From Anaerolineae bacterium (GTDB lineage Bacteria; Chloroflexota; Anaerolineae; DRVO01), in the NCBI GenBank assembly GCA_013178015.1, contig JABLXR010000005.1, positions 38,532-102,531 of the forward strand: 64,000 bases of DNA. Direction: 5' to 3'. Shown piece after piece: positions 556 to 63,241 of this stretch; position 1 is the stretch's first letter, and the number at the start of each line of letters is the position of its first letter. The position numbers were made by a program, and so were the translations under genes. The notes beneath the pieces are model-generated. The model worked only from the letters and a program-made list of their open reading frames with translations. It did not search any database and had not been told where the DNA came from.

Positions 556-619
556 CTCACGCCAAGACGCAAAGGGAAACCGCTATGTGGGCTCCGCGCT
601 TTGCCGTCTTTGCGTGAGG
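556..619. repeat. Imperfect hairpin element of CGCAAAG-word type, 7 nt after the uxuA stop
   Basis: Left arm CTCACGCCAAGACGCAAAGGG and right arm CGCTTTGCCGTCTTTGCGTGAGG are near reverse complements around a 20-nt loop. Its arm words match the element at 51725-51795. Confidence 0.6.
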
Positions 620-759
620 CGGGTACCTCCAGCGGATGGGGCTGAGGCGCTACCAGGGCGCGGGCGGCTAACACGGCCGGCGGTCCGCTCGCGCTAGCGA
701 CGGGCGTCACGAGAAGCGACGCCCGTCGCTGGCTGTTTTGCCGCGACGCAGTGCCGTCT

Positions 760-1545
760 CTATGGCGCTGGAACCTGCCAAGGCGTGTAGCTGTCCGTGG
801 CCGGGTACACCCGGAACTCCGGCTCTCCCCGAGCGGTGTCGCCCACGGAGGCGACCAGGCTTCCCTCGGCCCAGAGTTCCACCTTATACGGGTGGCCGTT
901 GCCTCCGTAGCGCCACATGTCGACGGGGAAGCCATCCAGCTTGAGGAAGCCGTTGGCATCTATGCGGCCATACCCCCTCGGGTTGACGTCCAGCCACTTG
1001 CCGTCTTCCCAACGGTACACCTTGATCCAGGAACTGCCATAGGGCCGCACGGCGGTGATGATGTTGCCCCCGTGGGCCGGCACTCCTAGCCACTCCCAGG
1101 TGAGCCTGGCAAAGGCCGCCCCCATATGCTCGTAGTACTCCATGCGGACGTGGTGCGGCCCTTCGCTCAACTCCACTTCCGCCGAGTGCGCCGTCCGCGA
1201 CATGTCGTGCCAGCGGTCTATGACCAGCCGGCCGTCGACGTACAGCCGGACGCCGTCGTCGGTCTCGGTGGTGAACCGCCACAGGCCCGCTTGCAGGTGA
1301 AGCGTCCCCGTCCAGCGAGCGGACCAGTTGTCGGAGGGGATGCGCCCGTCGGGGGAGCCGTAGCCCCAGTCGAAGCTGAGGGCGCTCTCATTGCGGGTGA
1401 CGGAGGGCGGTCCAGTTAGCCAAGGGTTGCTGTAGTACTCGGCGTACCACTGTCCTTCCTGAGCCGACGCCAGGGTGGGGGATGCCAGCACGGCCAGGCC
1501 CAACACTACCGCTACCAAGACCTTCAGTCGCAGTCCTCTGAGCAT
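760..1545 (-). CDS. Secreted PA14-domain protein
   Basis: N-terminal signal peptide (LKVLVAVVLGLAVLASPTLASAQ). PA14 core motif WRFTTETDDGVRLYVDGRLVIDRWH. Confidence 0.75.
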   Translation of the reverse strand: MLRGLRLKVLVAVVLGLAVLASPTLASAQEGQWYAEYYSNPWLTGPPSVTRNESALSFDWGYGSPDGRIPSDNWSARWTGTLHLQAGLWRFTTETDDGVRLYVDGRLVIDRWHDMSRTAHSAEVELSEGPHHVRMEYYEHMGAAFARLTWEWLGVPAHGGNIITAVRPYGSSWIKVYRWEDGKWLDVNPRGYGRIDANGFLKLDGFPVDMWRYGGNGHPYKVELWAEGSLVASVGDTARGEPEFRVYPATDSYTPWQVPAP

Positions 1546-2383
1546 CTTGTCCTACCTCCTTCTCCTCTCAGCACTTCGCAGCCCGACGGCTGAATCATAG
1601 CCTGACGCACCCGCCGAGACGCCGGGCAACAGGCGAGTCCGCTCACCGGCCTGCCGGCGAGTCTTTCGCCCGCCCGATCGGGCAGGGAGCTCACGTCCGA
1701 GCCGGAACCGAACTCGGCCCGACCGCCTGCGACCGGGTGCACAGTCCTGTACCGCGCAGCTATACCATCACCTCTACTATCTACCTTATAGACGTCAGCA
1801 CATGGTCCCTGGTTCCGGGAGGAAGACACGTTAGCGGGGCCGAACTCGCTCAGCTTTCGGGATACTGATGCCGCGCCGGGAACGCCCAGGAGCTGCTTTC
1901 CGGTGCACTTCTTACAGCGCCGGGCTACCATGCTGCGGCGACTGGCTACTCTGATCTGAGCTGCTGACTTCCAGCCTCGCCGAGGCCGGTGAGGGATCAG
2001 TTCGGCAGGGGGCAGGCCGACCCGACCGATGGCGCCGGCTACCCACTGGCAACACCCTGGGGGACAGCGGTGTCTACCCGGTGCAGCATCCGCCCGACCT
2101 CGACTGATCGCTGCCCTACGTCGCAGTAGTGCTGTTCTCTGAGCGCTGGTTGGTGCTGATCATGGAGGTCCCAAGTATGGCGACTGTGCACCTCGCCTCC
2201 CAGGGGGAGGACGGGTAGCTAATGGGGCGAATCGGGGAGGCCAAGGCGGATTACGGGAGGGCCGTACCGGCGATGAGTCTCGTGGCCGGCCTGTCGCGAT
2301 CGGTGCGGCGCGGCAAGCCGATCGAGAAGCTGAGGTAGCCACCTCCGCGGCCAGACGGGGCCGAACGGCTGTGCCCGGCTCGG

Positions 2384-2716
2384 GTGTCGCGGTCTGAGAG
2401 CATGACGATGACGCTGCCGGACATAAGGCTTACGTCGGAGATGCTTTGGTGGAGCGCGCTCGTCACCGCTCTGATTGACGTCGGGCTGATCCTCCTCCTG
2501 GTCCGTCGCATTCCGCGCGCCCGGTTCAACCAACTGCACTGGCCGGTGGCGCTGGCCGCGGGCATCTTCTGGGTGAGCTACGGGCTGCTTCTCTTCGCCC
2601 TGCCGGAGTACGTCCTCTACTGGGCCAGCGTCTTGAGCCTCGCTGTTCTGCTGCAACGCGGCCAGCGCTGGTGGGGAGCACGGCGAGGCCTGCGAACTAC
2701 TGGGTCTCGTTGGTAG
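2384..2716 (+). CDS. Hypothetical small membrane protein
   Basis: 110-aa ORF with two or three hydrophobic helices. No recognisable motif. It overlaps other ORF calls, so the coding status is uncertain. Confidence 0.2.
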   Translation: MSRSESMTMTLPDIRLTSEMLWWSALVTALIDVGLILLLVRRIPRARFNQLHWPVALAAGIFWVSYGLLLFALPEYVLYWASVLSLAVLLQRGQRWWGARRGLRTTGSRW

Positions 2717-2719
2717 AGA

Positions 2720-3840: not shown

Positions 3841-3867
3841 CCGGTAACCTCCTTGCCTCTGCAGAAT

Positions 3868-3958
3868 GATGCGTGATACGTGATGTGTGATGCGTGACAC
3901 GTGGGCTGTATCGGCGAGAGTGGATGTCACGTATCACGTATCACGCATCACGCATCAC
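3868..3958. repeat. Imperfect palindrome built from GTGATAC/GTGATGC direct word repeats
   Basis: Arms GATGCGTGATACGTGATGTGTGATGCGTGACACGTG and GATGTCACGTATCACGTATCACGCATCACGCATCAC lie between the MocR stop and the ECF-S start. It contains the TCACGC core shared with other elements. Confidence 0.6.
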
Positions 3959-5463
3959 ACGAACGGGCGCTCTTGGCTGGGATCGGCGCGGCGGACGCCT
4001 GGCCTCCGGGCCAGGTCTTCGATCGCCCGGGCTAGCCGGCGCACTCCCTCGGCGATCTCGCCCTCGCTCCGGAAGGCGAACCCCAGGCGCATGAAGCCCT
4101 CACCGCCCGCGTGGGTGAAGAACATGGGCCCAGGGGCGAACGAGACTCCCAGTTCCCCAGCTCGCTCCAGCAGGTCGCTCGAGGCCACCCCATCCGGCAG
4201 CGCGCACCACACGTACAGCCCGCCCGCCGGCTGGCTCCAGCCGACGCCAGCCGGCATATGTCGCTCCAGCGCCTGCAGCATGGCGTCCCGGCGGCGGCGG
4301 AACGTCTGCCTCAGCCAGTGGAGATGGGCCGGAAAGGATTCACCTCGCAGCAGATCGTGGACCACCAGTTGCACCAGGTTGTTGGGGTGGAGGTCCATAT
4401 CCTGGCGCAGCCGCAGGAGGGGTTCCACGATGGGAGGCGGCGCCAGCACCCATCCCAACCTCAACCCGGAGCCTAGCAGGGAGGAGAGACCACCCAGATA
4501 CACCACGTAGCCCCCGTCGTCCAGCGAGCGAATGGGCGGCGGCAGGGGGTCCTCGAAGTGAAGCTCCCCATGGAGGTCATCCTCCAGGATGGGGATCTGG
4601 TGGCGCCGGGCCAGGGCCAGCAGCGCCGCCCGGCGGTCGAGGCTCATCAAGCTGCCGGTAGGGTTCTGGAAGTTGGGGTTGGTGTAGATCAGGCGGACGT
4701 CGGCGTGAGCGAGGTAGTGTCCTGCCGCTTCCACCTGCATGCCCTCGTCGTCCACGGGCACGCCCACCGGCCGGGCTCCAATGGAGCGGAACACGGAAAG
4801 GGCTCCCAGGTAGGTGGGAGACTCGACCAGGACCACGTCACCCGGGTCCAGCAGCAAGCGCGCTACCAGGTAGAGCCCCTGCTGGGTGCCAGAGGTGACG
4901 ATCACCTGGCCGGCGGAAGCGTCCCGGCATCCCTTGAACCTGAGCTCCCGTGCCAGTTCCTCCCGCAGCGGAGTGAGACCGGCGATGGGCGAATCCTCCA
5001 GGAGGGCGGCCATGCGGCTATTGACCACTCTCTGGACCACCTGGGCCAGGGCCAGGTGCGGAGAGCCGGTGATGTCTGCCACCCCAGTGGCGAAGGAGAT
5101 CACGCCCGGCCGGGAGCTCAGTTGGGCCACCCTCTCGCCGATGCCCGTCTCCGGCCACCGAGGACGGGACCGCATCAGGCCAGACCAGGCCAGAGGAAGC
5201 GCGGGCGGCTCGGCGAGCTCCTCCGTCGCGCCCAGCACCACGGTACCCACGCCGACGCGCCCTTCCACCAGGCCATCGGCGGCCAGGCTGCCGTAGGCGT
5301 TGACCACAGTGGTGCGGTTGACGCCCAGGCGCTCGGCCAGCTCCCGCTCCGAGGGCAGCCTGTGACCGGCGGGTAGGATCCCCTCCAATATGAGCGCGCG
5401 TATCTGCTGCTCAATCTGGCGGTAGAGAGGGACCTTGCCCTCTCTATCAACGGTCACCTGCAC
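3955..5463 (-). CDS. MocR-family regulator: GntR winged helix-turn-helix fused to a PLP aminotransferase-like domain
   Basis: N-terminal wHTH (PLYRQIEQQIRALILEGILPAGHRLPSERELAERLGVNRTTV) plus a fold-I aminotransferase domain. GTG start at 5463 preceded by AGGAG; the ATG at 5529 is an alternative. Confidence 0.85.
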   Translation of the reverse strand: MQVTVDREGKVPLYRQIEQQIRALILEGILPAGHRLPSERELAERLGVNRTTVVNAYGSLAADGLVEGRVGVGTVVLGATEELAEPPALPLAWSGLMRSRPRWPETGIGERVAQLSSRPGVISFATGVADITGSPHLALAQVVQRVVNSRMAALLEDSPIAGLTPLREELARELRFKGCRDASAGQVIVTSGTQQGLYLVARLLLDPGDVVLVESPTYLGALSVFRSIGARPVGVPVDDEGMQVEAAGHYLAHADVRLIYTNPNFQNPTGSLMSLDRRAALLALARRHQIPILEDDLHGELHFEDPLPPPIRSLDDGGYVVYLGGLSSLLGSGLRLGWVLAPPPIVEPLLRLRQDMDLHPNNLVQLVVHDLLRGESFPAHLHWLRQTFRRRRDAMLQALERHMPAGVGWSQPAGGLYVWCALPDGVASSDLLERAGELGVSFAPGPMFFTHAGGEGFMRLGFAFRSEGEIAEGVRRLARAIEDLARRPGVRRADPSQERPFV

Positions 5464-17572: not shown

Positions 17573-17645
17573 AGGGGTACACCTCCCCGGCGCATATTGG
17601 CGGCATACCGGCTCGCCCGCAAGTGCCCTGGCCCCAGAGGCGTAG

Positions 17646-17749
17646 GGCCACAGAGAAGCGGGTGACGTTCCTGAGTACGGGCATGACTCAATCCACTCAA
17701 AGGGGAGTTCCCTTGTTCCATCCTCTGTGTCTCGGTGTCTCTGTGGGCC
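17646..17749. repeat. Imperfect hairpin element of CACAGAGA-word type
   Basis: Arms GGGCCACAGAGAAG and CCTCTGTGTCTCGGTGTCTCTGTGGGCC sit in the divergent region between the GH5-like gene and the purH-like gene. The words match the arms flanking the GxxExxY gene. Confidence 0.55.
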
Positions 17750-17816
17750 TCCCTATCTTGGCGGTGCGGCGTGGTTGCGCTAGAGTTGCGTCCAGCTCAA
17801 TCACGGAGGGTCGCGA

Positions 17817-29182: not shown

Positions 29183-30643
29183 CTACCTCCTGACAAAGAA
29201 CCGCCCGAAGTTCGACACGTACGTGGGCAGGCGGCGCCAGGTGTCGGGGGAGGTGGCGCGCTGCCAGATCCGGCGGGGACGAAAGTAGAAGCGCCGGTAG
29301 GCCTCGTGGAACTTGCGCTCCACCAACCCCGCCGTCATGTCGCCCATCTCGAAGCGGGCGCGCTCACCGTGAATGGCCAGGTCGTGGTATCCGCTCGCCA
29401 GCAGCCGACCCTCCCGCTGCACCATCTCGTACAGCTCCGTCCCGGGCAACGGGTCGGCCATCATGAAGTTGGCCAGGTCCGGGTCCAGCTCTAGCGCCAG
29501 CCGAATGGTGTCCTCCATGGTCTCTTCGGTCTCTCCCGGTAGGCCGAAGATGAAGAAGCCCATGGTCTGAAGTCCGGCAGCCTTGGCGTTGGCGAAGGCA
29601 GCGCGCACGTCCTCGATCTTCTGTCGCTTCTTGATGGAGTCCAGGATGGCCTGGTTGCCGCTCTCCACCCCGAAGCCCACACGCTTGCAGCCAGCCCGCT
29701 TCATGAGGCGAAAGAGCTCGGCGTCAGTGTGGTCCGCTCGCATACCGTGGATGGTCACCCAGGGGACCGACGCCAGGCCCTCGTCAATGAGCAGATGGCA
29801 AATGCGCTTGGCCCGATCCAGGTCCAGATTCCAGACGTCGTCGGTGACCCCGATCTCGGTGGCCCGCATCTCCCGCACCAGATAGGCCCACTCTTCTACC
29901 ACCCTCTCCGGGGACCGAGCGCGCCAGGTGTTGCCGGTGATGGGCTTGGAGCAGTAGATGCACTGGTAGGGGCAGCCGCGCGAGGTGAGCAGGGTGTAGG
30001 CGCGGGCGTGCTTCTGCAGGCCGTCGGTGAGGGGCTGCAGGTTGGTGTAGCGTTCGATGGGGAAGAGGTGATAGGCGGGCCAGGGCAGGGCATCCACGTC
30101 CTGGCGCAGGGACCGTCCGGGGTTGTGCACCACCTTGCCCTGCTCGTCGCGGAACGAGACTCCGGCGATGCCACCCCAGACCTCCGCCCGAAAACGGCGT
30201 CCGCCCTCTCCCTCCAGGCCGCGGTCGCGTTGCAGGGCACGCATCACCTCGATGATGGTATCCTCGGCCTCGCCGCGCACCACCAGGTCCACCTGGGGCT
30301 TCTCCAGGGACTCGCCGGGATGCAGGGTGAGGTGTGGTCCGCCGAGTATGGTGATGGCGCCGGCGCGGTGGGCCACCTCGGCCGACTGCCAGGCTTCCTC
30401 GATCAGGGGGGTGGGGCTCGAGATGCCTACGACGTCGTAGGAGGCAGATGCCAGCCGGTCCGAGAGGGACCGGTCCTCCACCGACTCCTCGAAGATGTCC
30501 ACCCGGTAGCCGTGCTCAAGGAGGGACCCGGCCAGGTACCCCAGGCCCATGTGTATGTGCGCCCGCGAGTCCCACACGCGGGAGGTGGGGCTGACGAGGA
30601 GGATGTCACTGCCACAGAGGCACGGAGACACAGAGGAGCTCAT
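29183..30643 (-). CDS. B12-binding radical SAM protein (class B radical SAM)
   Basis: N-terminal cobalamin-binding domain and a CPYQCIYC radical SAM cluster motif. The first 11 codons are encoded by a repeat arm. The ATG overlaps the GxxExxY stop (ATGA). Confidence 0.85.
   Translation of the reverse strand: MSSSVSPCLCGSDILLVSPTSRVWDSRAHIHMGLGYLAGSLLEHGYRVDIFEESVEDRSLSDRLASASYDVVGISSPTPLIEEAWQSAEVAHRAGAITILGGPHLTLHPGESLEKPQVDLVVRGEAEDTIIEVMRALQRDRGLEGEGGRRFRAEVWGGIAGVSFRDEQGKVVHNPGRSLRQDVDALPWPAYHLFPIERYTNLQPLTDGLQKHARAYTLLTSRGCPYQCIYCSKPITGNTWRARSPERVVEEWAYLVREMRATEIGVTDDVWNLDLDRAKRICHLLIDEGLASVPWVTIHGMRADHTDAELFRLMKRAGCKRVGFGVESGNQAILDSIKKRQKIEDVRAAFANAKAAGLQTMGFFIFGLPGETEETMEDTIRLALELDPDLANFMMADPLPGTELYEMVQREGRLLASGYHDLAIHGERARFEMGDMTAGLVERKFHEAYRRFYFRPRRIWQRATSPDTWRRLPTYVSNFGRFFVRR
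30612..30638. repeat. Inverted-repeat arm CCACAGAGGCACGGAGACACAGAGGAG (left arm flanking the GxxExxY gene)
   Basis: Near-perfect reverse complement of 31016-31046. It lies inside the 5' coding end of the radical SAM gene. Confidence 0.7.
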
Positions 30644-31011
30644 AGGATGAGACGTTTCACTCCTTGCCTGAGGAGGCGGGTGTTGAGGTTGATGGGCAGG
30701 CCGGCTCTCTTGCCGGTCAGGCGCAGGTAGGTTAGCAGTTGCGCCTCGAAGACCGGATCGTGTCTCTCCACGCTCTCGATCTCCACGATCACGCTGTCGC
30801 CAACCAGCAGGTCGAGGCGGTAGTCACCGATGGGGTGACCATTGTAGACGAAGGGTACGGCCACCTGACGAGCGAACGGGACACGTCGCAGCTGCAGCTC
30901 CGGCGCCAAAGCCTCTTCGTGGGCCACTGCCAGAAGCCCCGGCCCCAAGTGGCGGTGGACCTCGATGGCTGCCTCTATGATCTGTTCGGTCAGCCCGTTG
31001 ATCTCGTCCAA
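30640..31011 (-). CDS. GxxExxY-family protein (PD-(D/E)XK-like), signature residues substituted
   Basis: Family pattern EQIIEAAIEVHRHLGPGLLAVAHEEAL...DYRLDLLVGDSVIVEIESV...AQLLTYLRLTGKRAGLPINLN. The GxxExxY positions read GLLAVAH. TTG start directly after the upstream stop. Confidence 0.7.
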   Translation of the reverse strand: MDEINGLTEQIIEAAIEVHRHLGPGLLAVAHEEALAPELQLRRVPFARQVAVPFVYNGHPIGDYRLDLLVGDSVIVEIESVERHDPVFEAQLLTYLRLTGKRAGLPINLNTRLLRQGVKRLIL

Positions 31012-32013
31012 TCAGCCTCTCTGTGCCTCTGTGCCTCTGTGGCTGGTCTCGACGGCCAGCGTTCGGCGTCGCTTGCGCAGCCACAGGAGCCCGCCGGGGA
31101 GGCTGCTGGTGTAGATGATGAGTTGCATGAGCAGCGAGACGGCGAGCGCTCCCGCGGGCGAGACTACCCCGCCCAGGCTGGAGTAGAGCAGATCGTAGGC
31201 CCCCTGATTGACCCCCAGCCCCCCCAGAGAGGGCACGATCAGAGGAGCGAAGGCGAGCATGGGGTTGAAGAGAAAGACGTATCGCAACGGTATCCCAGCC
31301 CCCACCGCCGTGGCCACCACCCAGTTGACCAGGTTGGAGGTGACGATGACCGCCAGGCCGATGCCGTAGGCCCGGGCCAGGGCGCCGGGATGATCGCGAT
31401 AGGTCTGCAGCGCCTCGGACAGGCGACCGTAGACCGGCTCCAGCCGGGATAGCAGAGGAAGCCGAAAGAGCTGCCCGATGAGCAGCCTGAGCCGGCGGCT
31501 GAAGAGCATCGCCAGGAAGCCGAGCGCTCCAGCGCAGGCAAGCCAGACCACTCCGGCCAGGGGCATCAGGTCGCTGCGACCCCAGCCAAACACGGCCACC
31601 GCCGACATGGCGGCGGCGCTGGTGATGAAGGCGGTGAGGCCCACCAGCCGGTCCACCAGGACGGATATGGCAGCGTCCTCGACGCGACTCAGGTGTCGGG
31701 CCAGGTCATACCCTCGCACCAGGTCGCCCCCTACGTTGGTGGGGAGGAAGTTGCCGAAGAAGAGCCCGGTGAAGGTGAAGGCCAGCAGGTCCGGGTAGGG
31801 CAAGGTCGCGCCCTGGGCCCGCAGGAGCAGGCTCCACTTGGCGGTGTTGAGGGCGATGGCGCCAAAGTACACCGCCAGGGCGGCGACCAGCAGAGGCACC
31901 GAGGCCCCGCCGAGGGTCGCGGCGACGGCATCCAGGTCCACCCGCCAGAGCAAGTAGGCGATCAGCGCCAGGCTAACCGCGATCTTCACCAGGTCTACGG
32001 CCCTCAGCCGCAT
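31012..32013 (-). CDS. Lysylphosphatidylglycerol-synthase-TM-region / flippase-like membrane protein (UPF0104)
   Basis: Start MRLRAVDLVKIAVSLALIAYLLWRVD, then about 8 TM helices. LPG_synthase_TM-like motif GNFLPTNVGGDLVRG. Confidence 0.7.
   Translation of the reverse strand: MRLRAVDLVKIAVSLALIAYLLWRVDLDAVAATLGGASVPLLVAALAVYFGAIALNTAKWSLLLRAQGATLPYPDLLAFTFTGLFFGNFLPTNVGGDLVRGYDLARHLSRVEDAAISVLVDRLVGLTAFITSAAAMSAVAVFGWGRSDLMPLAGVVWLACAGALGFLAMLFSRRLRLLIGQLFRLPLLSRLEPVYGRLSEALQTYRDHPGALARAYGIGLAVIVTSNLVNWVVATAVGAGIPLRYVFLFNPMLAFAPLIVPSLGGLGVNQGAYDLLYSSLGGVVSPAGALAVSLLMQLIIYTSSLPGGLLWLRKRRRTLAVETSHRGTEAQRG
31016..31046. repeat. Inverted-repeat arm CCTCTCTGTGCCTCTGTGCCTCTGTGGCTGG (right arm)
   Basis: Reverse complement of 30612-30638. 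It encodes the last codons (SHRGTEAQRG) of the flippase-like gene. Confidence 0.7.
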
Positions 32014-33043: not shown

Positions 33044-33057
33044 GCCCCTCACCCAGA

Positions 33058-33082
33058 GCCACAGAGACACGAAGACACGGAG
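33058..33082. repeat. Solo arm-like copy CCACAGAGACACGAAGACACGGAGG
   Basis: Same word family as 30612-30638. It sits just upstream of the GT2 start. I found no partner arm. Confidence 0.35.
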
Positions 33083-33086
33083 GTAC

Positions 33087-33322
33087 TCACCGGCGTTCCC
33101 TCTGGCTGGCGTTCAGCACGGTCACGCCCACCACTTCCCCTTCCTGGTAGCGTATGATGATTCATCATCGGTGAGCTCGGAATCGTCGGCGTGGCTCGGC
33201 TTGCGGAAGTTGATGTAGAGAACGTCTGCCTCCTCATCGTACGTCACCCAGATTCGCTTGTGCGAAACCCCAAGCAGTCCAGGAACGAGAGCCAACACCC
33301 TATCCAACTCTACTGTGGCCAC
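33087..33322 (-). pseudogene. DUF2283-family (antitoxin-like) gene with an apparent 1-nt deletion frameshift
   Basis: Frame 0 gives ...IWVTYDEEADVLYINF...SELTDDE, then stops early. The -1 frame continues IIIRYQEGEVVGVTVLNASQRERR, matching the DUF2283 C-terminal consensus (IILDYDKEG.IIGIEILDAS). The shift lies in an AA run inside the palindrome GATGATGAATCATCATC. Confidence 0.5.
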
Positions 33323-33618
33323 AGCTTCACCCTCCTCTCCAACCGTGCTCTTCGTCGGGTAAGGAAGGCAGTGATGACGAAGCCGTCACTGGCACTCAGC
33401 TCTCGATACACCACCAGATACTTGCCCGGGTCTACTTCTCTTACCGCCAGGCACTCACCTGCGCTACCCTGATAGACCGCCTCGGCTCCTACCACCGCCT
33501 CCAGGACCTCGAAGTAGTAGCCGGCCAATTCGGAGTGTTGCTCAGTGATATGAAACCACCTGTCCTGAGAGAGCCGAATGGGTACACCCTTTCTGGAACT
33601 GACCGTTTCCGAGCTCAT
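33310..33618 (-). CDS. DUF4258-like (toxin-like) small protein
   Basis: 103 aa (IRLSQDRWFHITEQHSE...YLVVYRELSASDGFVITAFLTRR). It overlaps the DUF2283 start and abuts the stop of the second radical SAM gene. Confidence 0.5.
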   Translation of the reverse strand: MSSETVSSRKGVPIRLSQDRWFHITEQHSELAGYYFEVLEAVVGAEAVYQGSAGECLAVREVDPGKYLVVYRELSASDGFVITAFLTRRRARLERRVKLWPQ

Positions 33619-37566: not shown

Positions 37567-37659
37567 GAACGCTGATGCCGCTGATATCACGCTGATCTAC
37601 GCTTATCGGAAAGAAGACCAAGGGAAGGGATAGTGTGCCATCAGCCGAATCAGTGTTCT
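37567..37659. repeat. Imperfect hairpin element of CGCTGAT-word type
   Basis: GAACGCTGATGCCGCTGATATCACGCTGATC...CCATCAGCCGAATCAGTGTTC with a GA-rich centre. It is related to the element at 54835-54956 (shared ...ATCAGYGTTCTGTCG end). Confidence 0.6.
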
Positions 37660-41018: not shown

Positions 41019-41804
41019 GTGCGTCCCTATCGCCCCAGCGACCGGGAGGCTGTGCGCTGCCTTTACGCCGACACCGCTTTCTTCGGGGAACCGGTAGAGG
41101 CTTACTTCGACGACCGCAAGCTCTTCGCCGACCTGGGTGTGAGCCTCTACCTGGATCACTACCCCGACTACGCCTTCGTGGCCAGGCAGGTTACAGGGGA
41201 TAGGTTACAGGTGACAGGGGACAGGTTACAGGGAGTGGCCCACGGGACCGAGAGAGGCCCGTCCTCACCCTGTCCCCTATCCCCTGTCCCCTGTAACCTA
41301 TCCCCTGTCACCTGTAACCTATCCGGGTACATTGTGGGGAGCCCGCACGGGGATGCCGACGTGCATCGGCACCTGATGGCGCACCTTCCTGCTATCGTGG
41401 GAAGGCTGGTGCGGGGACGCTACCGCCTGGGCCGCAAGACCATGCTCTACTACCTGGACAACGCCCTGGCCTGGCTGCGAGGGCAGCTGCTGGAGATCCG
41501 CGACCCCGCCTATCCCGCCAACCTGCACATCAACGTCGCCTCGTCTCACCGAGGGCAGGGCCTGGGATGGGAACTGTTGTCCGCTTACCTGGAGCACCTG
41601 CAACGCTGCGGGGTGCCGGGGGTGCACGCGGTCACCACGGATCACAGTCGAGGTGCCGTCAGGCTCTTCCAGAAGGCTGGCTTTCGGCTCTTGGAAGAGA
41701 AGAGCACCTCGGTGTGGCGCCGGCACCTGGGCCGGCAGGTGAGGCTGCTTGGGTTCGGCCTGCGGCTGGATCAGGACGGGCCACCGCCGAGGCGGCCATC
41801 CTAG
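41019..41804 (+). CDS. GNAT-family N-acetyltransferase carrying an in-frame 45-codon repeat insertion
   Basis: GNAT motifs (HINVASSHRGQGLGWELL; FQKAGF). The insertion QVTGDRLQVTGDRLQ...PVTCNLSG sits between beta strands. Confidence 0.7.
   Translation: MRPYRPSDREAVRCLYADTAFFGEPVEAYFDDRKLFADLGVSLYLDHYPDYAFVARQVTGDRLQVTGDRLQGVAHGTERGPSSPCPLSPVPCNLSPVTCNLSGYIVGSPHGDADVHRHLMAHLPAIVGRLVRGRYRLGRKTMLYYLDNALAWLRGQLLEIRDPAYPANLHINVASSHRGQGLGWELLSAYLEHLQRCGVPGVHAVTTDHSRGAVRLFQKAGFRLLEEKSTSVWRRHLGRQVRLLGFGLRLDQDGPPPRRPS
41189..41325. repeat. Intragenic imperfect palindromic element of GTTACAGG/GACAGGG-word type
   Basis: Left arm GGTTACAGGGGATAGGTTACAGGTGACAGGGGACAGGTTACAGGGAG. Right arm CCCTGTCCCCTATCCCCTGTCCCCTGTAACCTATCCCCTGTCACCTGTAACC. 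The GNAT reading frame is preserved through it. Confidence 0.6.
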
Positions 41805-47430: not shown

Positions 47431-47635
47431 GGGGATTCACCGCCGAGATCGCCGAGACCGCAGAGAGAAGCGGAGGAAATGAGATCCGATGTCGTCGCCG
47501 CGGTCGCAATGAGCTACGGGGAAGAGGTGGGTCGGACGGCTGCTCCCGGCCCTGACGCGCCTCAGCAGTGCTTCAGTCGCCTGCCATGTCGTTCTTAGCT
47601 CTCTGACTTCTCGACGACCTCTGCGGTCAACCCCC
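47431..47635. repeat. MITE-like element with terminal inverted repeats GGGGATTCACCGCCGAGA...CCTCTGCGGTCAACCCC
   Basis: The left end GGGATTCACYGC-GAGA-CGC-GAGACCGCAGAGAGAAG is shared with 48439-48629 and 60082-60244. Purine-rich left half, pyrimidine-rich right half. Confidence 0.65.
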
Positions 47636-48438: not shown

Positions 48439-48629
48439 GGGACTCACCGCAAAGATCGCAGAGACCGCAGAGGATTGGCAAAGGCGAAGGGAAGAGGGAT
48501 GCAAGTCGCCGGGGGGATGGGAGGGCAGTGGCTCAGGTGCCCTTGCGCTGGCGGGCTGCGCTCTCTGATGCTCCCTGTACTCTCTCTGCGTCTTCTCTGC
48601 GTTCTCGGCCATCTCTGCGGTGATATCCC
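48439..48629. repeat. MITE-like element, same family (GGGACTCACCGCAAAGATCGCAGAGACCGCAGAGG...CTCTGCGGTGATATCCC)
   Basis: It exactly fills the spacer between the isomerase stop (48433) and the hemW ATG (48636). Confidence 0.65.
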
Positions 48630-51724: not shown

Positions 51725-51795
51725 CCTCACGCAAAGACGCCAAGGCGCAAAGGAGTACGGCAAGGGATCTTGGCCTCCTTGCGCCTTTGCGTGAG
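51725..51795. repeat. Imperfect hairpin element of CGCAAAG-word type
   Basis: CCTCACGCAAAGACGCCAAGGCGCAAAGGAG...CTCCTTGCGCCTTTGCGTGAG sits between the dnaA stop and the stop of the convergent ATC-hydrolase-like gene. Its words match 556-619. Confidence 0.6.
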
Positions 51796-52525: not shown

Positions 52526-53131
52526 CTAGTCCTCCCGACGCGCTGCCAGCAGCTCTCGTAGGCTCTCGGCGGTGAGGCTGGCGCCGGTCAGGTCCAGCCC
52601 ACTGAGGTCGAGCCCCTGCAGGTCTGCTCCCTCTTCGAGTACGGCCCCGGTGAGGTCGGCGTTCTCCAGGTTGCTCCCTTGCAGGTTGACTCTGGGCAAC
52701 ACCGCTCCCGTCAGGTCGGCCTGGCGCAGGGTGGCTCCCTGCAGGTTGGCCTCCCGCAGGACGGCCCCGGTGAGGTCGGCCCGGCGGAGGTCGGCGTTCT
52801 GCAGGTTGGCCCGTCGCAGGACGGCTCCGGTGAGGTCGCTGCCGCGCAGGTCGGCACCCTGCAGGTTGGCGTCCTGCAGGTCGGCTCCCGTGAGGTCGGC
52901 GGCCTCCAGCCTGGCGCCCCGGAGTCGGGTGCCCCTCAGGTTGGCTCCGGCAGCGTTGTCCAGGACAGGCCGGGCGCGGGGCGGCCTGGGCGGGGGCTCC
53001 AGCCTACCCCGTCGCGAAGAGGGAGCAGCCGGTTGCCGGTGGGCGAGGGCCGCGAGGAGGCCGTCGGCCTCCTCGGCAGTGATGCGGCCTTCCTGCACCA
53101 TTCTCAGTATCCGCATTCGCTCTTCGCTCAT
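52526..53131 (-). CDS. SHOCT-like N-terminal domain + pentapeptide-repeat protein
   Basis: N-terminal MSEERMRILRMVQEGRITAEEADGLLAAL, then about 20 A(D/N)LxG pentapeptide repeats. Confidence 0.75.
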   Translation of the reverse strand: MSEERMRILRMVQEGRITAEEADGLLAALAHRQPAAPSSRRGRLEPPPRPPRARPVLDNAAGANLRGTRLRGARLEAADLTGADLQDANLQGADLRGSDLTGAVLRRANLQNADLRRADLTGAVLREANLQGATLRQADLTGAVLPRVNLQGSNLENADLTGAVLEEGADLQGLDLSGLDLTGASLTAESLRELLAARRED

Positions 53132-53140
53132 GCCTGCCTC

Positions 53141-54196
53141 TCAGTTAGCTTCGCGCCGCTGGCGCAGCGCGCGCACCTCCGCGGCGCTCAGGCGGGCGCC
53201 GGTCAGGTCGAGGTCCCGGAGATCCAGGCCGCTCAGATCGGCACCTTCTTCGAACACCGTGCCCATCAGAGACGAGTCCCTCAGGTCTGTCCCCTGGAGG
53301 TTGGCCTTGGGCAATACCGCCCCCATCAGGTCGGCATCGCGGAGGACCGCGCCCTGCAGATTGGCGCCGTCTAGGACTGCGCCCATCAGGTTGGCGTCCC
53401 GTAGGTCGGCGCCCTCCAGGTTGGCGTCCCGCAGAATGGCTCCCTTGAGATCGGCATCGCGCAGATCGGCGTCGTGCAGGTTGGCGCCGGTGAGGTTGGC
53501 TCCCTTGAGGTCGGCACCCTCGAGCCTCGCCCCCTCTAGGTTGGTGCCCTCCAACACTGCCCCGGCGAGGTTGCCGAATGAGGCCCCGTGCCTGTCCGCC
53601 CTCTCTGCCCTGGCGGCGTCCCTCTCCAGGCGCGCGGTCATCCGCTGCAGCTCGGCGTTCAGCCGGCGCACGGCCGCCTCGATCTGGGGCTGCACCTCTT
53701 TCATCGTCTGCTCGGTGGCGGCCCGCACCGAATCCACCAGCCGCTCCGCCTGAGCCGCTATCTGCTGCCTCTGGGTGGAGTCAACCATCTCATTGATCAT
53801 CCGGCTCACTTCCTGGGCCAGCCTGTTCGCGTGCCCCTCGAACTCCTTCCAGTACTCGGAGTGGAAGCCGGCTCGCACAGCCTCGCCTACGCTCTCGCCC
53901 AGGTCCGCCAACTGCTCCTCCACCTCGCGCCAGGCCTCCTGGGTGCGCTTCCAGTCCTGACGCTGGCGCTCGGGCTCGGGCGCGCCGGGCATCTTCTCGG
54001 CGACGGGCTTTCCCTCGGCGGTCGGCGGCTCCGACGTCTCAGCTACTGGTTCCGGCGAAGGCTCGGGCGGCCGGGGCGGTTCCTCTACCACCGGCGGCTC
54101 GCCCAGGGCCTCCAGGAGGTCGTTGGCCTCCTCGGGGGTAAGCCTACCCTCCTGGAGCATTCTCAGTATCCGCAGCCGTTCCTCGCTCATGGCCAT
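53141..54196 (-). CDS. SHOCT-like N-terminal domain + coiled-coil + pentapeptide-repeat protein, paralog of 52526-53131
   Basis: Start MAMSEERLRILRMLQEGRLTPEEANDLLEAL, with GGGAGGG upstream. A Pro/Glu linker, a charged helical middle, then pentapeptide repeats. Confidence 0.75.
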   Translation of the reverse strand: MAMSEERLRILRMLQEGRLTPEEANDLLEALGEPPVVEEPPRPPEPSPEPVAETSEPPTAEGKPVAEKMPGAPEPERQRQDWKRTQEAWREVEEQLADLGESVGEAVRAGFHSEYWKEFEGHANRLAQEVSRMINEMVDSTQRQQIAAQAERLVDSVRAATEQTMKEVQPQIEAAVRRLNAELQRMTARLERDAARAERADRHGASFGNLAGAVLEGTNLEGARLEGADLKGANLTGANLHDADLRDADLKGAILRDANLEGADLRDANLMGAVLDGANLQGAVLRDADLMGAVLPKANLQGTDLRDSSLMGTVFEEGADLSGLDLRDLDLTGARLSAAEVRALRQRREAN

Positions 54197-54353
54197 CCCT
54201 CCCGGATTGGCTACCTCTGACTCGGCCACCAATCTTGTCTCTTTCCTCCCCGGGCTCGACGCTCTCCGGTCTCCCACAAGGCGGTGCCACACTCCTCTTA
54301 GGGTCGAACTCCGCGCTCCGGGCATGCCACTGTTCATGATCGTGCCTCCTTGC

Positions 54354-54767
54354 TCAGCTGCGGTCGCGCTCTGAGGCCAGGGACGAGAGCAGGGTGGCCG
54401 CCTCCTTGGCCCCTATCTCCCCGGCCTCCAATTGGTCCAGCACTTCCCTTCGCCGAGCTGCCACTTCCTCGGGAGTGGGTGCTCCCTCCGCCTCGTCGAA
54501 CCCCATCTCCTGGATTACCTCGCTGAGACGGGTACGCAGAGTCCAGTAGGACTCTCCCAGCTCCCGCTCCATCTCCTTGAGGTTGCCCCGGCGCCGGACG
54601 AAAAGCTCCACGAACCGGAGGCTCTCAGGCGAGAGGTTGCCCAGGGCGCAGGGCTCGTAGCGGGCCAGAATGACGGTCTCGCAGTCTCGACACTCCAACC
54701 TGGTCGCTTCCAGCCTGCCGCCACAATTGGGGCATCTGGTCAACATCGTGCGTGCCATCCCCTTCAC
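54354..54767 (-). CDS. DUF2089-like zinc-ribbon protein with a SHOCT-like C-terminus
   Basis: Zinc ribbon CPNCGG...CRDC. C-terminal PEEVAARRREVLDQLEAGEIGAKEAATLLSSL resembles the N-termini of the two downstream genes. Confidence 0.5.
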   Translation of the reverse strand: MKGMARTMLTRCPNCGGRLEATRLECRDCETVILARYEPCALGNLSPESLRFVELFVRRRGNLKEMERELGESYWTLRTRLSEVIQEMGFDEAEGAPTPEEVAARRREVLDQLEAGEIGAKEAATLLSSLASERDRS

Positions 54768-54834
54768 CTCCGCACGTTTTGCGGCAGTCTACAACAGCTT
54801 TGGCAGGCTGTCAAGAGGGGGTGACGCAGGAACG

Positions 54835-54956
54835 GCTAGAACGAGGATCGAACGCAGATCGCGCGGATGCTACGCAGATCAACGCTGATCGGGAAAGGCG
54901 AATGTCCAACCCTCAGCGGAGGTTAGCGTAGTATCAGCAGCATCAGCGTTCTGTCG
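54835..54956. repeat. Imperfect hairpin element of CGCAGATC/CGCTGATC-word type
   Basis: It is related to 37567-37659 (shared TGTCAA...GGATAGAACG...ATCAGCGTTCTGTCG). It sits between the DUF2089 start and the esterase stop. Confidence 0.6.
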
Positions 54957-54976
54957 CTCTACGGCTCCGCCGCAGG

Positions 54977-60019: not shown

Positions 60020-60081
60020 ATGGCCTCCTGAGCGGTAGTGACCCCCATTGTGGCGGTTGGCGGCGGGGAGTCAACCGGAGA

Positions 60082-60244
60082 GGGATTCACTGCAGAGACC
60101 GCTGAGACCGCAGAGAGAAGATGAAGAGGCTGGGCGAAGGCCATCAGGTTCTCAGGCTAGCCACATTCCCGCCGACCGTCTTTCCCTGTCCCCTCCCTTC
60201 TGAGCGCTTTCTCCGCGGTCTCTGCGTTCTTTGCGGTGAGACCC
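60082..60244. repeat. MITE-like element, same family (GGGATTCACTGCAGAGACCGCTGAGACCGCAGAGAGAAG...CTTTGCGGTGAGACCC)
   Basis: It exactly fills the spacer between the GH127 start (60019) and the stop of the second URO-D-like gene (60246). Confidence 0.65.
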
Positions 60245-60245
60245 T

Positions 60246-61277
60246 TCACGCCCGAATCGGATACCCGCCGTACTTCTCCACCGCCTCGGTGAATGCCACC
60301 ACGTTCGTCGGGTCGAGATACCCTGCCAGGCTGTTGCCGCTGGTGATGATGTAGCCGCCTCCCGGGCCGACGTTGCGCATCAGCCAGCGGACCTCGTCCT
60401 CCACCTCCTGAGGAGTGCCCAGGCCGAGGATGTTCAGGTCCAGGTTGCCCAGCACGCAGATGCGATCCCCGTACCGCCGCTTCCCCTCCACGATGTCCAT
60501 GGCTCCCTTCTCGTTGGGGTGCAGCCCGGCGATGCCCAGGCTGAGTAGGCCCTCCATGAAAGGCATCAGGTTCCCGTCGCTATGGATCACCCAGGGCAGA
60601 CTGACCCTTCGTCCTACACGGCGAAACCGGGGCAGGACTAGGTCGTGGAACACCTGAGGGGAGAAGAAGGGGCCGCTCTTGAAGGCCATGTCATCCGTGG
60701 ACACGAAGACGTCGAACCCCAGGCTGCACACTCTCTCGGCTACGGCTTCGGCCCAGTCCACGTACCGATCCAGCACCGCCTCCACGAACCCCAGGTCCTC
60801 GTAAAGGGAGACGCTGAAGGTCTCGGTGCCCATACCCAGCATGGTAGGGAAGATGCCCACTCGGGTGACGAACCAGCAGGAGTAGTCCTCCTTGCCGTCC
60901 ACGAACCGCTTGGCTCCCTCGTAGAGCCGCTCGTCGGTGGGGTCGGGCAGTTGGATCATGTCCATGTCGGCCCGAGCGCGGATCATGCCCTCCCCATAGA
61001 ACAGGCGCCCGTCCTGTCCGGGAAGCTTGCGGGCGTACACCGGAGCCCGGAGCACATAGTGGATGTTATCCAGCTTGAGGAAGGAGGCGATGGCCTTCTC
61101 CTCCTCCAGCGTGTAGGGGTTCTGCTCCAGGTCATCGCGCTGGCTGAGGGGTCCACCCCACTGCAGGAGTTGCTGCGCTAGGGCGCGGTCCACACCCAAC
61201 TCACAATGCGGCACTCTGTCGGGCTGTTCCCGCCGCAGCGCGGCCGCCACTCTCTCTCGAGACGTCATGTCCGCCAT
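60246..61277 (-). CDS. URO-D family protein (MtaA/uroporphyrinogen-decarboxylase-like), second copy
   Basis: N-terminal SRERVAAALRREQPDRVP and C-terminal motifs. About 30 % similar by eye to 24502-25638. Confidence 0.75.
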   Translation of the reverse strand: MADMTSRERVAAALRREQPDRVPHCELGVDRALAQQLLQWGGPLSQRDDLEQNPYTLEEEKAIASFLKLDNIHYVLRAPVYARKLPGQDGRLFYGEGMIRARADMDMIQLPDPTDERLYEGAKRFVDGKEDYSCWFVTRVGIFPTMLGMGTETFSVSLYEDLGFVEAVLDRYVDWAEAVAERVCSLGFDVFVSTDDMAFKSGPFFSPQVFHDLVLPRFRRVGRRVSLPWVIHSDGNLMPFMEGLLSLGIAGLHPNEKGAMDIVEGKRRYGDRICVLGNLDLNILGLGTPQEVEDEVRWLMRNVGPGGGYIITSGNSLAGYLDPTNVVAFTEAVEKYGGYPIRA

Positions 61278-61310: not shown

Positions 61311-61456
61311 GGGACGCAGACGCGGAGAGGGGGAGACACGGAGACACGGAGAGGGGGAGAGGGGGAGATGGTGAGACGCGGAGAGAGGGAGACTGCCCCC
61401 TGGTCGTAGCGTCTCGGTATCTCCCCCTCTCCGCGTCTCCCCCTCTCCCCCTCCCC
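61311..61456. repeat. Imperfect hairpin element of GGAGA-word type
   Basis: Left arm GACGCGGAGAGGGGGAGACACGGAGACACGGAGAGGGGGAGAGGG..., right arm its pyrimidine-rich complement. It shares the word CACGGAGACAC with the arms flanking the GxxExxY gene. Confidence 0.65.
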
Positions 61457-61478
61457 AATGGCCACGGGTGCCGCCCCG

Positions 61479-62129
61479 CTAAGTCTGGCCCAGGCCCGTC
61501 AGGTACTCTAGCATGTAGCGGAGAATCAGGCACAGCGACAGCGCCCCCGGATCGGGGTGGCCGAGGGAGCGCTCGCCCAACGTCTTGGCCTTGCCGATTC
61601 TAGCCACCATGCTCTTGGTCGCCTCCACCCCCGACCAGGCGGCTTCGCCAGCCGCGCGCAAAGCCTCCGGCAGGGGCGCCTCCCGGTTCGACCGGGCCGC
61701 TTCGGCCGCGGGTGCCAGGGCGTCCACGACCGTCTTGTCGCCCGGCGCCGCCTTCCCCCGCCTCTGTACCGCCGTCAAGGCCTCTTCCAGGAAGTCGGCC
61801 AGCCCGGCAGCGTCCAGTGTCTCTCTCCCCCTCAGGGCCGCCGCTCCTGCGCGGAATAGAGTGCCGAAGATGGCCCCGGCGGCCCCGCCCACCGAGGTGA
61901 GCAGGGCCGTTCCCGCGGCCTGAAGGGCATCGCCGGGGAGGTCGATCTCGGCACTCCGCAGTCTGGCCGCCACCGCAGCGAAGCCCCGGGCCATGCCCAC
62001 GCCGTGATCGCCGTCGCCCACGGCCCGGTCCGCCTGGGTGAGAAGGTCGGCGGTCTCCTGCATCCGGGCGGCTACGTGCAGGAGCATGTCTCTTGTCTGG
62101 GCTGCGGTCAGCCCTGTCACCGGGCTCAT
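61479..62129 (-). CDS. dhaL: Dihydroxyacetone kinase subunit DhaL
   Basis: DhaL pattern (DAVGDGDHGVGMARGF). Confidence 0.85.
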   Translation of the reverse strand: MSPVTGLTAAQTRDMLLHVAARMQETADLLTQADRAVGDGDHGVGMARGFAAVAARLRSAEIDLPGDALQAAGTALLTSVGGAAGAIFGTLFRAGAAALRGRETLDAAGLADFLEEALTAVQRRGKAAPGDKTVVDALAPAAEAARSNREAPLPEALRAAGEAAWSGVEATKSMVARIGKAKTLGERSLGHPDPGALSLCLILRYMLEYLTGLGQT

Positions 62130-63154
62130 CTCCTGCTAAGGCCCAACGAAGAGCAAGGCGCATCGTAGTAGGCTTTGAGTTCCTCATCCAGCCGCAGCAG
62201 GGTGAGGGAGAACCCGGCCATTTCCTGGCAGGTGCAGAAGCTGCCCACCACGGTGTCGTGCGCCTGCAGGCCCTCGCGCGCCAGGACCTGGTGGGCCCTC
62301 CTGCAGGCCACCAGGAGCTCCATCCAGGTAGTGGAGCCCAGGTCGTTCACCAACAGGCACACTTCGTCGCCGGGGCGAAACAGCCGGCTCTCGAGCCGCC
62401 CGGCGGGCGGGTCCGCCAGGATCCTCTCCAGCATCTGGTCCACCAGCGCATCGGCGAGCATCATCGGGCCGCGGGCCACCCCGGGCTCGCCGTGGAGGCC
62501 CATGCCGATCTCGATCTCGTCCTCGCCCAGCTCGAAAGTGGGCTCGCCGGTCTCGGGGATGGACCCGGCGGCCACGGCCACCCCCATGGAGCGAGTGTGG
62601 TCGCGGGCCTTGGCCGTCACCCGTGCTACCTCGCCCAGCTCGCCGAGGGCGGCAGCGGCGGCTCCGGCCACCTTGATGACGAACAGATCGCCCGCGATCC
62701 CGCGGCGATCCTCCAGGCGTTCCGGTGGAGCGGCGGCGACGTCGTCCCATACGCGCACCGTCTCCACCCGGATGCCCTCCTCCATCGCCAGCTCGGCGGC
62801 GATGTCGAAGTTCATGTTGTCGCCAGCGTAGTTGCCGTAGAGGTAGAGGACGCCGGCGCCCCGGTGGACGGCGCGGGTGGCGGCCAGGATGACGTCCGGG
62901 GTGGGAGCGGCGAAGACGTGCCCGCAGGCGGCTCCGTCGGCCAGGTTGTCGCCGATGAAGGCGGGGAAGAGGGGCTCATGGCCGCTGCCGCCGCCGATGA
63001 GGAGGGCCACCTTGCCCTCGGGAATGTGGGCTTTGGCCAGGGCGCCGGTGGGCTCGAGCAGGCGCATTGAGCCGCCATAGGCGGCGACCAGCCCCTCCAG
63101 AAGCTCCGGCACCGCGCGGGAGGGATCGTTGAGGATCTTCTTGGCTCTAGGCAT
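62126..63154 (-). CDS. dhaK: Dihydroxyacetone kinase subunit DhaK
   Basis: Dak1 motifs (LLIGGGSGHEP; GMGLHGEPG). It overlaps dhaL by 4 nt. Confidence 0.9.
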   Translation of the reverse strand: MPRAKKILNDPSRAVPELLEGLVAAYGGSMRLLEPTGALAKAHIPEGKVALLIGGGSGHEPLFPAFIGDNLADGAACGHVFAAPTPDVILAATRAVHRGAGVLYLYGNYAGDNMNFDIAAELAMEEGIRVETVRVWDDVAAAPPERLEDRRGIAGDLFVIKVAGAAAAALGELGEVARVTAKARDHTRSMGVAVAAGSIPETGEPTFELGEDEIEIGMGLHGEPGVARGPMMLADALVDQMLERILADPPAGRLESRLFRPGDEVCLLVNDLGSTTWMELLVACRRAHQVLAREGLQAHDTVVGSFCTCQEMAGFSLTLLRLDEELKAYYDAPCSSLGLSRR

Positions 63155-63167
63155 ATGGGGCCTCCTG

Positions 63168-63241
63168 AAACGTGAGACGTGAGGAGTGACAGGCGCCCAG
63201 CGGCGCCTGGAGGTTCACGGGTCACTTGTCACGCGTCACGC
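63168..63241. repeat. Imperfect hairpin element of ACGTGAG/GTCACGC-word type
   Basis: ACGTGAGACGTGAGGAGTGACAGGCGCC...GGCGCCTGGAGGTTCACGGGTCACTTGTCACGCGTCACGC sits between the dhaK start and the aldolase stop. Confidence 0.55.

Follow-up and report, generated by a model that had tools for sequence, protein, structure and literature searches.

A 64-kb stretch of the genome of an Anaerolineae bacterium (Chloroflexota; GenBank assembly GCA_013178015.1, contig JABLXR010000005.1, positions 38,532 to 102,531; hereafter the window, meaning the whole of the DNA analysed) carries 12 imperfect hairpins, along with a gene-bearing copy and a solo arm, all built from short degenerate sequence words. We call them tandem-word hairpins, and they look like a widespread and so far undescribed kind of selfish DNA. 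We consider it somewhat probable that they belong to a superfamily of selfish palindromic elements akin to cassettes in which such arms enclose a gene for a GxxExxY protein, a predicted nuclease that would mobilise the hairpins. This relation would recall the REPIN-RAYT systems, in which doublets of repetitive extragenic palindromic (REP) sequences form hairpins (REPINs) and are accompanied by a REP-associated tyrosine transposase (RAYT) (Bertels and Rainey 2011, PMC3116915). The architecture of the copies, the wide occurrence of the ends of families f, c and a, the constant association of word arms with GxxExxY genes, an insertion in a coding gene and a difference in presence between relatives were all directly observed. 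The mobilising role of the nuclease is the part that we infer.

Families of hairpins with conserved inverted ends

The arms are arrays of 2-9 degenerate words of 7-9 nt each and span 25-75 nt, enclosing loops of ~16-120 nt that are not conserved between copies. Analysis with Tandem Repeats Finder indicated that both arms of most copies are arrays of period 7, 8 or 9, with period 7 in families b, e and h and period 8-9 in families a, c, d, f and g, families a-h being assigned by words and ends (Table 1). The arm pairs were recovered by an inverted-repeat search of the window. Folding gave a single long hairpin as the minimum-free-energy (MFE) structure in 11 of the 13 tested regions, with z-scores of -4.2 to -10.1 computed against dinucleotide shuffles; the weaker regions were 47428-47640 (z -1.9), the ends of which do pair, and 17633-17761 (z -0.3). 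A conservative detector requiring ungapped arms and periodicity found 6 elements, compared with an average of 0.8 over ten second-order Markov shuffles, and two- or three-word array patterns matched the window only within the listed elements, for an expectation of 0.00-0.15. The GC content of the window ranges from 61 to 71% (~66% overall), and raw sliding-window MFE was useless as a detector at 66% GC, coding regions folding equally well.

The copies are real and non-random, and conserved inverted ends place them in families. In family f, the six ends of the three copies align over ~45 nt and the loops are unrelated, which bears out the conserved 40-nt end and its reverse complement noted in a preliminary description of the window. 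Likewise, d1 and d2 have the ends AGAACGCTGAT...CAGTGTTCTGTCG in common. Word arrays and inverted arms were found at every position where that description had placed a hairpin. Its claim of one architecture for every copy holds for most of them; the feature at 33058 is a solo arm, the arms at 30612 and 31016 lie 375 nt apart around a gene, and 17633-17761 has a single purine word. The 5' arm is purine-rich, as had been described, in 13 of 14 arms (purine fraction 0.58-0.86). Since this polarity is identical on the reverse complement, it is intrinsic to the element and uninformative on orientation to replication or transcription. In e, b and g, each arm is a tandem array and the variable word positions of one arm are mirrored in the other, with 88-97% complementarity (97% over 36 nt for e); this word-for-word mirroring could reflect either a recent origin or local palindromic copying.

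Table 1. Tandem-word hairpins of the window and small ORFs beside the solo arm. Fold z-scores are followed by the folded region where it differs from the position given.
Element	Position	Strand	Words, arms and ends	Setting	Fold z-score
a1	556..619		family a words CTCACGC-NAAG (556, 51725); arms CTCACGCCAAGACGCAAAGG / CTTTGCCGTCTTTGCGTGAG	between convergent genes	-5.2
a2	51725..51795		family a words	convergent spacer downstream of dnaA	-5.2 (51724-51797)
b	3867..3958		family word GTGATGC; heptamers TGATGCG x4.4 / TCACGCA x4.6	GntR-aminotransferase stop (3955) on one side, ECF-S ribosome-binding site and start (~3843) on the other	-5.2 (3864-3961)
c1	17633..17761		family c words GCCACAGAG-NCACNGAG (17633, 30612/31045, 33050); degenerate; full pyrimidine arm CTCTGTGTCTCGGTGTCTCTGTGGGCC against single purine word GGGCCACAGAGAAG	divergent spacer	-0.3
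c, gene-bearing	30612..31045	-	family c words; arms 30612-30638 and 31015-31045		-4.7 (30608-31048)
c, solo arm	33050..33085		GCCACAGAGACACGAAGACACGGAGG on plus strand; not a hairpin		
d1	37567..37659		family d words AGAACGCTGAT (37567, 54835); words CGCTGATN	divergent spacer	-4.7 (37560-37665)
d2	54835..54956		family d words	abuts promoter-like TTGACA-17-TAGACT, 54814-54786, minus strand	-6.0 (54830-54960)
e	41187..41324	+	heptamers CAGGTGA/CAGGGGA/CAGGTTA (CAGGTKA), 21-nt super-period	inside gene	-10.1 (41185-41326)
f1	47431..47635		family f words GGGATTCACCGC-NGAGANCGC (47431, 48439, 60082), end TCACCGCAGAG...; ends GGGGATTCACCGCCGAGATCGCCGAGACCGCAGAGAGAAG / reverse complement; loop 121 nt	divergent spacer	-1.9 (47428-47640)
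f2	48439..48629		family f words	fills spacer from stop 48433 to start 48636/48639	-4.2 (48438-48632)
f3	60082..60244		family f words	between URO-D-like stop (60246) and GH127 promoter-like site (60074-60047, minus)	-4.3 (60080-60246)
g	61318..61456		octamers GGAGAGGG/GGAGACAC x8.6		-6.4 (61311-61458)
h	63168..63245		heptamers ACGTGAG / TCACGCG	right arm overlaps DeoC-like gene end	-4.5 (63165-63245)
Slot ORF	33122..33322	-	DUF2283	beside solo c arm	
Slot ORF	~33310..33600	-		beside solo c arm	

GxxExxY genes lie between word arms

Two points had escaped the preliminary description: the copy at 41189-41325 lies inside a coding gene, and the arms at 30612/31016 bracket a gene of the GxxExxY PD-(D/E)XK family. 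The latter, a 123-aa open reading frame (ORF) on the minus strand (30640-31011), matches PF13366 (PDDEXK_3; E 4e-32, 111.4 bits for a cut-off of 22) and TIGR04256 'GxxExxY protein' (E 1e-33, 115.7 bits for a cut-off of 35), and the protein has >7,900 homologues at E<=1e-10. PDDEXK_3 is listed as of unknown function, with multiple horizontal transfers (PMC3424549). Word arms accompany the gene at all 12 GxxExxY loci examined (the window, L088, L111, L084, L202, L212, L222, L236, L230, L233, L326 and L328) and stand on both sides in 11 of them, representing ~7 independent insertion sites; at L084, a c-like left arm stands directly before the gene and the contig ends inside the gene. The association appears from either side. 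Among metagenome loci with f arms, L088 and L111 have a GxxExxY gene exactly between the arms and, starting from the genes, c-type arms bracketed the gene at every locus fetched (L212, L202, L222, L236, L230, L233, L326 and L328), including an Acidobacteriota metagenome-assembled genome (MAG; L230). These c-type arms accompany one GxxExxY clade of 60-80% identity.

The fit of the cassette to its neighbours is tight. In the window and L222, the final residues of an upstream LPG-synthase-like protein are read from the left arm, its TGA stop directly adjoining the GxxExxY start, and the right arm encodes the N-terminus (MSSSVSPCL...) of a downstream radical-SAM protein, the ATG of which overlaps the GxxExxY stop. 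A Shine-Dalgarno-like GGAGG or AGAGG, contributed by the last purine word, precedes the cargo start by a few bases. The preliminary description had the copies fitting exactly between stop and start codons: this is true of 48439-48629, and arms do overlap coding ends at 30612-31045, the hairpin at 41187-41324 being the departure as it lies within a gene. Two gene junctions recur in different lineages, cbiG - GxxExxY - precorrin methylase (L202/L233) and PP-binding - GxxExxY - AMP-binding (L230/L328), with 59-72% protein identity between the cassettes; these are either old vertically inherited insertions or preferred targets.

In order to consider the protein itself, we took an intact relative (P0004), whose AlphaFold model has a predicted local distance difference test score (pLDDT) of 93.7. 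The best PDB matches of this model are lambda exonuclease, Cas4 SSO0001, RecE and MGME1 (probability 0.99, E ~2e-3) and, judged by these fold matches, the GxxExxY family is a minimal RecB/Cas4-like nuclease core. Residues D67, E77 and K79 are 99-100% conserved among 120 homologues, and K79E occurs in the window copy alone. That copy has a TTG start and carries E28A and Y31H in the name motif, K79E in the D...ExK triad, and G13E, K57N, L106P and F109L; each of these seven positions is >=95% conserved in the 120 homologues, the window protein alone differing. Such replacements in the motif and the triad, together with the TTG start, suggest that the window copy is decayed and probably inactive. 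A PDB sequence search with GxxExxY gave no match, PADLOC and PHROGs gave none, and an alignment scan of viral contigs gave no confirmed relatives.

A second cargo was found at L086, where a gene of PF05635, the '23S rRNA-intervening sequence protein' (E 5e-36), lies between heptamer-word arms; at L034, a homologue of this PF05635 gene is followed by a heptamer-word hairpin. Neither GxxExxY genes nor genes for the intervening-sequence (IVS) protein were present in 62 IMG/VR loci with c or a arms. In the literature, of which our coverage is incomplete, we found no report linking GxxExxY genes to flanking word-repeat arms.

The nature of the enclosed gene bears on another explanation, namely that these are classical REP or REPIN sequences mobilised by a RAYT (a Y1 transposase) or an IS200/IS605 gene elsewhere in the genome, as the preliminary description had proposed. 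Inverted-unit doublets, hairpins in spacers and high density are indeed REPIN-like (PMC3116915), and 64 kb of the genome were inspected. Yet Pfam assigned no Y1 or other transposase, integrase or RAYT among the ~50 window genes, the gene between the arms encodes a PD-(D/E)XK protein in all 12 loci, and the ends start with TCACCGC, GCCACAGAG or CTCACGC and not with the GTAG/CGTC tags of the REP super-families (PMC3733652). We thus regard a RAYT-type partner as very improbable.

The ends recur in unrelated contigs

The preliminary description took the system for genome-specific, which did not survive searches elsewhere: many unrelated contigs carry ends of families f, c and a. Searched with an IUPAC pattern of the family f end, JGI metagenomes gave at least 120 matching stretches. 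Among the matches listed, 64 of 122 f arms had a partner arm, defined as >=21/30 complementary positions within 500 nt, compared with 0 of 122 after shuffling. The host loci of f arms span 36-71% GC, and in the AT-rich locus L111 the arms retain their GC-rich words. The ends of family c, constant as T(T)AGCCACAGAG...CTCTGTGGCTAA, were found in 29 IMG/VR stretches, with a partner for 23 of 37 arms; the pattern has 21 specified bases, for which we roughly estimate ~0.03 chance matches. The family a end pattern matched 33 IMG/VR stretches compared with ~3-4 expected by chance, again by our own rough estimate, and only 6 of 36 of these arms had an ungapped partner.

The same build with other words was found in other Anaerolineae, Roseiflexaceae, Planctomycetota (including the isolate Fontivita pretiosa), Lentisphaerae and Verrucomicrobiota, and tandem-word elements occur in Acidobacteriota as well. 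In some metagenome and IMG/VR loci, three or four purine arms stand in a row as a direct series, or a hairpin of one word family sits within the loop of another (L133:681-1572, L137:1467-1880, L135:1184-1496, L243:1570-1844 and L280:3178-3525).

Insertion, turnover and assembly breaks

Element e lies in frame and without stops in the ORF of a GNAT acetyltransferase (250 aa in the NCBI annotation), where it adds ~41 residues between the FVA and GY motifs. This insert is missing in 13 of 13 aligned GNAT homologues (53-67% identity). A second difference between relatives concerns the f3 spacer upstream of the GH127 gene, through which the nearest genomes were identified as the Anaerolineae MAGs L002 (83% amino-acid identity) and L003 (77%). 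The promoter-like TTGACT-16-CACAAT (60074-60047, minus) and the 5' leader are conserved in the window, L002 and L003, and the element is present in L002 and missing in L003. No such comparison of empty and filled spacers came from the URO-D-like gene, whose three closest homologues (80-86% identity) stand in different gene contexts. The solo c arm is conserved at the same spacer in L222. The slot beside it, between radical-SAM and glycosyltransferase genes, holds two small ORFs in the window, a single DUF2283 gene in L236 (L236:569-952) and none in L222, where it is reduced to 96 nt (L222:3859-3954).

Independent assemblies stop within arms: L001, identical (100%) to the window over 10.4 kb and a Logan metagenome contig, ends at window position 61359 in element g, L002 starts within an arm, and L239, L329 and L330 end in one. 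Tandem-word repeats fragment metagenome assemblies. Many contigs with GxxExxY and URO-D homologues are only 0.5-2.5 kb long, and gene callers read arms as protein tails, for example in 'long' GxxExxY calls of 129-138 aa. Together, the conserved inverted ends that cluster the copies in families, the absence of element e from its homologues, the f3 difference and these contig breaks support the view that the copies behave like small non-autonomous selfish elements.

Tests of a role in RNA

An element is present in 2 of 7 convergent, 3 of 8 divergent and 7 of 18 co-directional spacers, with no preference for a spacer type. No T-run follows any of them, the canonical T-run terminator at 696-745 being separate from element a1. 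Intrinsic terminators, recognised by a short GC-rich stem and a T-run, were ruled out on this ground, and the terminator role suggested in the preliminary description is unlikely as all spacer classes are used as well. G-U pairs and MFE were compared on both strands with the direction of transcription, and no bias to the transcribed strand was observed. In 59 f elements, the arms agree at 0.51 of the free word positions as compared with 0.48 for shuffled partners, and no pairwise covariation exceeded the control. This indicates that the complementarity comes from a shared word consensus and not from base-pair selection, and such a consensus would fit the recognition of words by a protein.

These results bear on the possibility that the hairpins are RNA elements of benefit to the host (RNase III sites, 3' stabilisers, read-through insulators or small RNAs) kept by selection. 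Most copies do lie between co-directional genes, some exactly between stop and start; f3 and d2 lie immediately upstream of promoter-like -35/-10 sites, and f3 is kept in L002. The rRNA intervening sequences are a precedent for RNA-processed stems. In addition, a part in stabilising transcripts or coupling translation has been proposed for cyanobacterial hairpins of the short tandemly repeated repetitive (STRR) type (PMC2670836). A host role nevertheless sits poorly with G-U pairs that show no transcribed-strand preference, with the equal use of the three spacer classes, with the absence of T-runs and of any Rfam match, with a copy within coding sequence, and with f arms that lack compensatory pairing; moreover, f3 is missing in L003 despite the conserved promoter. 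We judge selection for a host RNA function to be improbable. An effect on transcripts as a by-product, by RNase III cleavage or by insulation before promoters as at f3 and d2, is plausible.

Two further candidates were considered. Integron attC sites were rejected because the core sites RYYYAAC / GTTRRRY are missing from the ends and the neighbours are ordinary metabolic genes with no integrase; arrays of clustered regularly interspaced short palindromic repeats (CRISPR) were rejected as well.

A model for the hairpins, and points against it

In the model that we favour, the full form of the element would be a small gene in the loop, mostly that of the 123-aa GxxExxY protein or, in a hairpin of other words, that of the IVS protein. 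The gene-less hairpins would most likely be the non-autonomous or empty form of these cassettes, a relation resembling that of REPINs to RAYTs or of miniature inverted-repeat transposable elements (MITEs) to insertion sequences. The word arrays may be protein recognition sites, since the fixed positions of the words are maintained in hosts that differ widely in GC and no covariation links the two arms at the free positions. Nicking or cutting at the arms by an intact GxxExxY nuclease, encoded at another place in the genome, would drive copying in a homing-type or transposase-like manner. Finally, the long stem formed in transcripts could make the insert tolerable within operons, probably through RNase III processing as in rRNA intervening sequences.

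Several observations weigh against this model. The window copy of the gene has lost its catalytic lysine and the GxxExxY name motif. Its cassette stands at an identical point of the operon in three species (window, L222 and L236; 72-80% protein identity) and is therefore stably inherited at that site, not recently mobile. No GxxExxY remnant was detected in the gene-less loops by blastx against 120 GxxExxY proteins (nothing below E 0.19), and no cargo gene turned up in families b, d, e, g and h. No copy of family d was recovered beyond the window: its 24 viral-contig matches are AT-rich, coding-like and without a partner arm, and are chance matches. A mobility event was not seen at nucleotide resolution, and a target-site duplication is not evident at the f, c and e ends. 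To our knowledge, no 123-aa PD-(D/E)XK protein acts as a transposase. The association with GxxExxY genes is equally explained by homing of the gene into pre-existing hairpins, and the mirrored arms of e, b and g fit local palindromic growth as well as recent insertion.

The last two points belong to a different history, in which the hairpins are older, independent STRR-like palindromes grown in place by replication slippage and hairpin-templated repair, and the GxxExxY and IVS-protein genes are homing guests that target loops and carry arms along by co-conversion. Empty loops without a gene remnant would be expected then, and palindromic copying would give arms that mirror each other word for word. 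Hairpins nested within the loops of other hairpins, seen in metagenome and IMG/VR loci, suggest loops as preferred targets; many word families look lineage-specific, and the pairing of c-type arms with one GxxExxY clade is what a site-specific homing enzyme would produce. Growth in place fails, however, to account for f and c ends that are GC-rich and identical in hosts ranging from 36 to 71% GC, or for the missing pairwise covariation of f arms, and the in-frame 138-nt hairpin of the GNAT gene is an insertion and not the local growth of a prior stem. On balance, we find this history unlikely and retain mobilisation by the nuclease as the working model.

A broader proposal can be put forward tentatively, as possible but doubtful in its full extent. 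GxxExxY proteins may be the nucleases of unrecognised, phylum-spanning mobile hairpin cassettes whose ends are word arrays read by protein, the gene-less hairpins of Chloroflexota, Acidobacteriota, Planctomycetota and perhaps the cyanobacterial STRR repeats being their non-autonomous progeny. This would be a PD-(D/E)XK counterpart of RAYT-REPIN, able to settle in operons, at gene ends and in frame within genes.

Small palindromic repeats are among the least understood parts of bacterial genomes, and the REPIN-RAYT system, with its known driver, has been informative on the persistence of selfish DNA. Here, tandem-word repeats, the orphan nuclease-like GxxExxY proteins (PF13366) and the 23S-rRNA-IVS proteins are joined by a common layout in which the loop of a word-built hairpin houses a small gene. 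If the nuclease does drive the repeats, a very large orphan family would gain a function, a compact system of sequence-word recognition would be identified, and an explanation would be offered for STRR-type repeats, the function of which is listed as unknown (PMC2670836). In practice, the elements interrupt metagenome assembly, lead gene callers to append spurious tails and can place extra peptides within real proteins.

Genomic setting

The ~50 genes of the window, as assigned by Pfam, concern corrinoid and radical-SAM metabolism, sugar enzymes, transporters and dnaA. The window has no match in Rfam at gathering thresholds, nor has 37500-38230 at E<=1, and it contains no tRNA, tmRNA or rRNA. 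The dnaA gene (50238-51596, plus strand; Bac_DnaA E 2e-69, with DnaA_N and DnaA_C domains) is flanked by the spacers 49962-50237 and 51597-51809, the downstream one of which holds element a2, and its presence suggests that the window may lie at or near a replication origin. The 702-nt divergent spacer that holds element d1 also contains a long rod-like fold of 366 nt (37665-38030; MFE -219 kcal/mol, z -4.4), closed by 19-nt arms at 37692-37710 / 37984-38002, without tandem words and without an Rfam match. At 52526-54767 (minus strand), a DUF2089 zinc-ribbon/helix-turn-helix gene is followed by two paralogous genes for pentapeptide-repeat proteins, both with an N-terminal SHOCT-like/DUF2089-C segment; these two genes account for the tandem repeats of period 15, 30 and 60 at 52704-53524.

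Comparison with known systems

The preliminary description also likened the copies to MITEs. Unlike in MITEs, the internal sequence is neither conserved between copies nor GxxExxY-like, and the candidate partner is no known transposase; no target-site duplication was evident at the f, c and e ends. The likeness is that the elements are short, non-coding and of high copy number, with terminal inverted repeats common to a family (six f ends; c ends over 37 arms), and that a longer gene-bearing form has the same ends.

STRR repeats were first described around 1990. Like them, the elements are tandem heptamers in inverted hairpin arrays in spacers, at least for families b, e and h, which have period 7. 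The cyanobacterial STRR repeats form such hairpins for instance between hupS and hupL (PMC2670836), and intergenic heptamer direct repeats are described in Beggiatoaceae (PMC4679880). Unlike STRR repeats, the elements have a host in Chloroflexota (as well as in Planctomycetota, Acidobacteriota and others), periods 8 and 9 are common, and conserved terminal motifs and a link to GxxExxY and IVS-protein genes are found here, both missing from the description of STRR in the literature covered.

With the intervening sequences of 23S rRNA, the elements share a long stem of inverted ends around a small ORF, and a PF05635 gene in L086. The stem of rRNA intervening sequences is removed by RNase III. 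The elements differ in that they lie in mRNA spacers and in one coding gene, that most copies have no ORF, and that PF05635 stands between arms in L086 alone. Rickettsia palindromic elements, which Ogata et al. are said to have reported in 2000, reportedly insert in frame in protein genes and are translated, as element e does in adding ~41 residues to a GNAT protein; unlike our elements, they have no tandem words and no associated nuclease gene, and there is no known sequence relation.

REP sequences are defined as palindromic units of 20-40 nt, one terminus of which carries a conserved GTAG or CGTC tetranucleotide (PMC3733652). The likeness to REPIN-RAYT lies in dense extragenic inverted hairpin doublets with shared family ends, in a protein gene flanked by the repeats and in gene-less copies that are far commoner. 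Unlike in REPIN-RAYT, the flanked gene encodes a 123-aa PD-(D/E)XK GxxExxY protein and not a Y1 tyrosine transposase, the arms are word arrays of 25-75 nt whose ends, (GGGAT)TCACCGC, (TTA)GCCACAGAG and CTCACGC, carry no GTAG/CGTC tag, and the same arm families extend across phyla.

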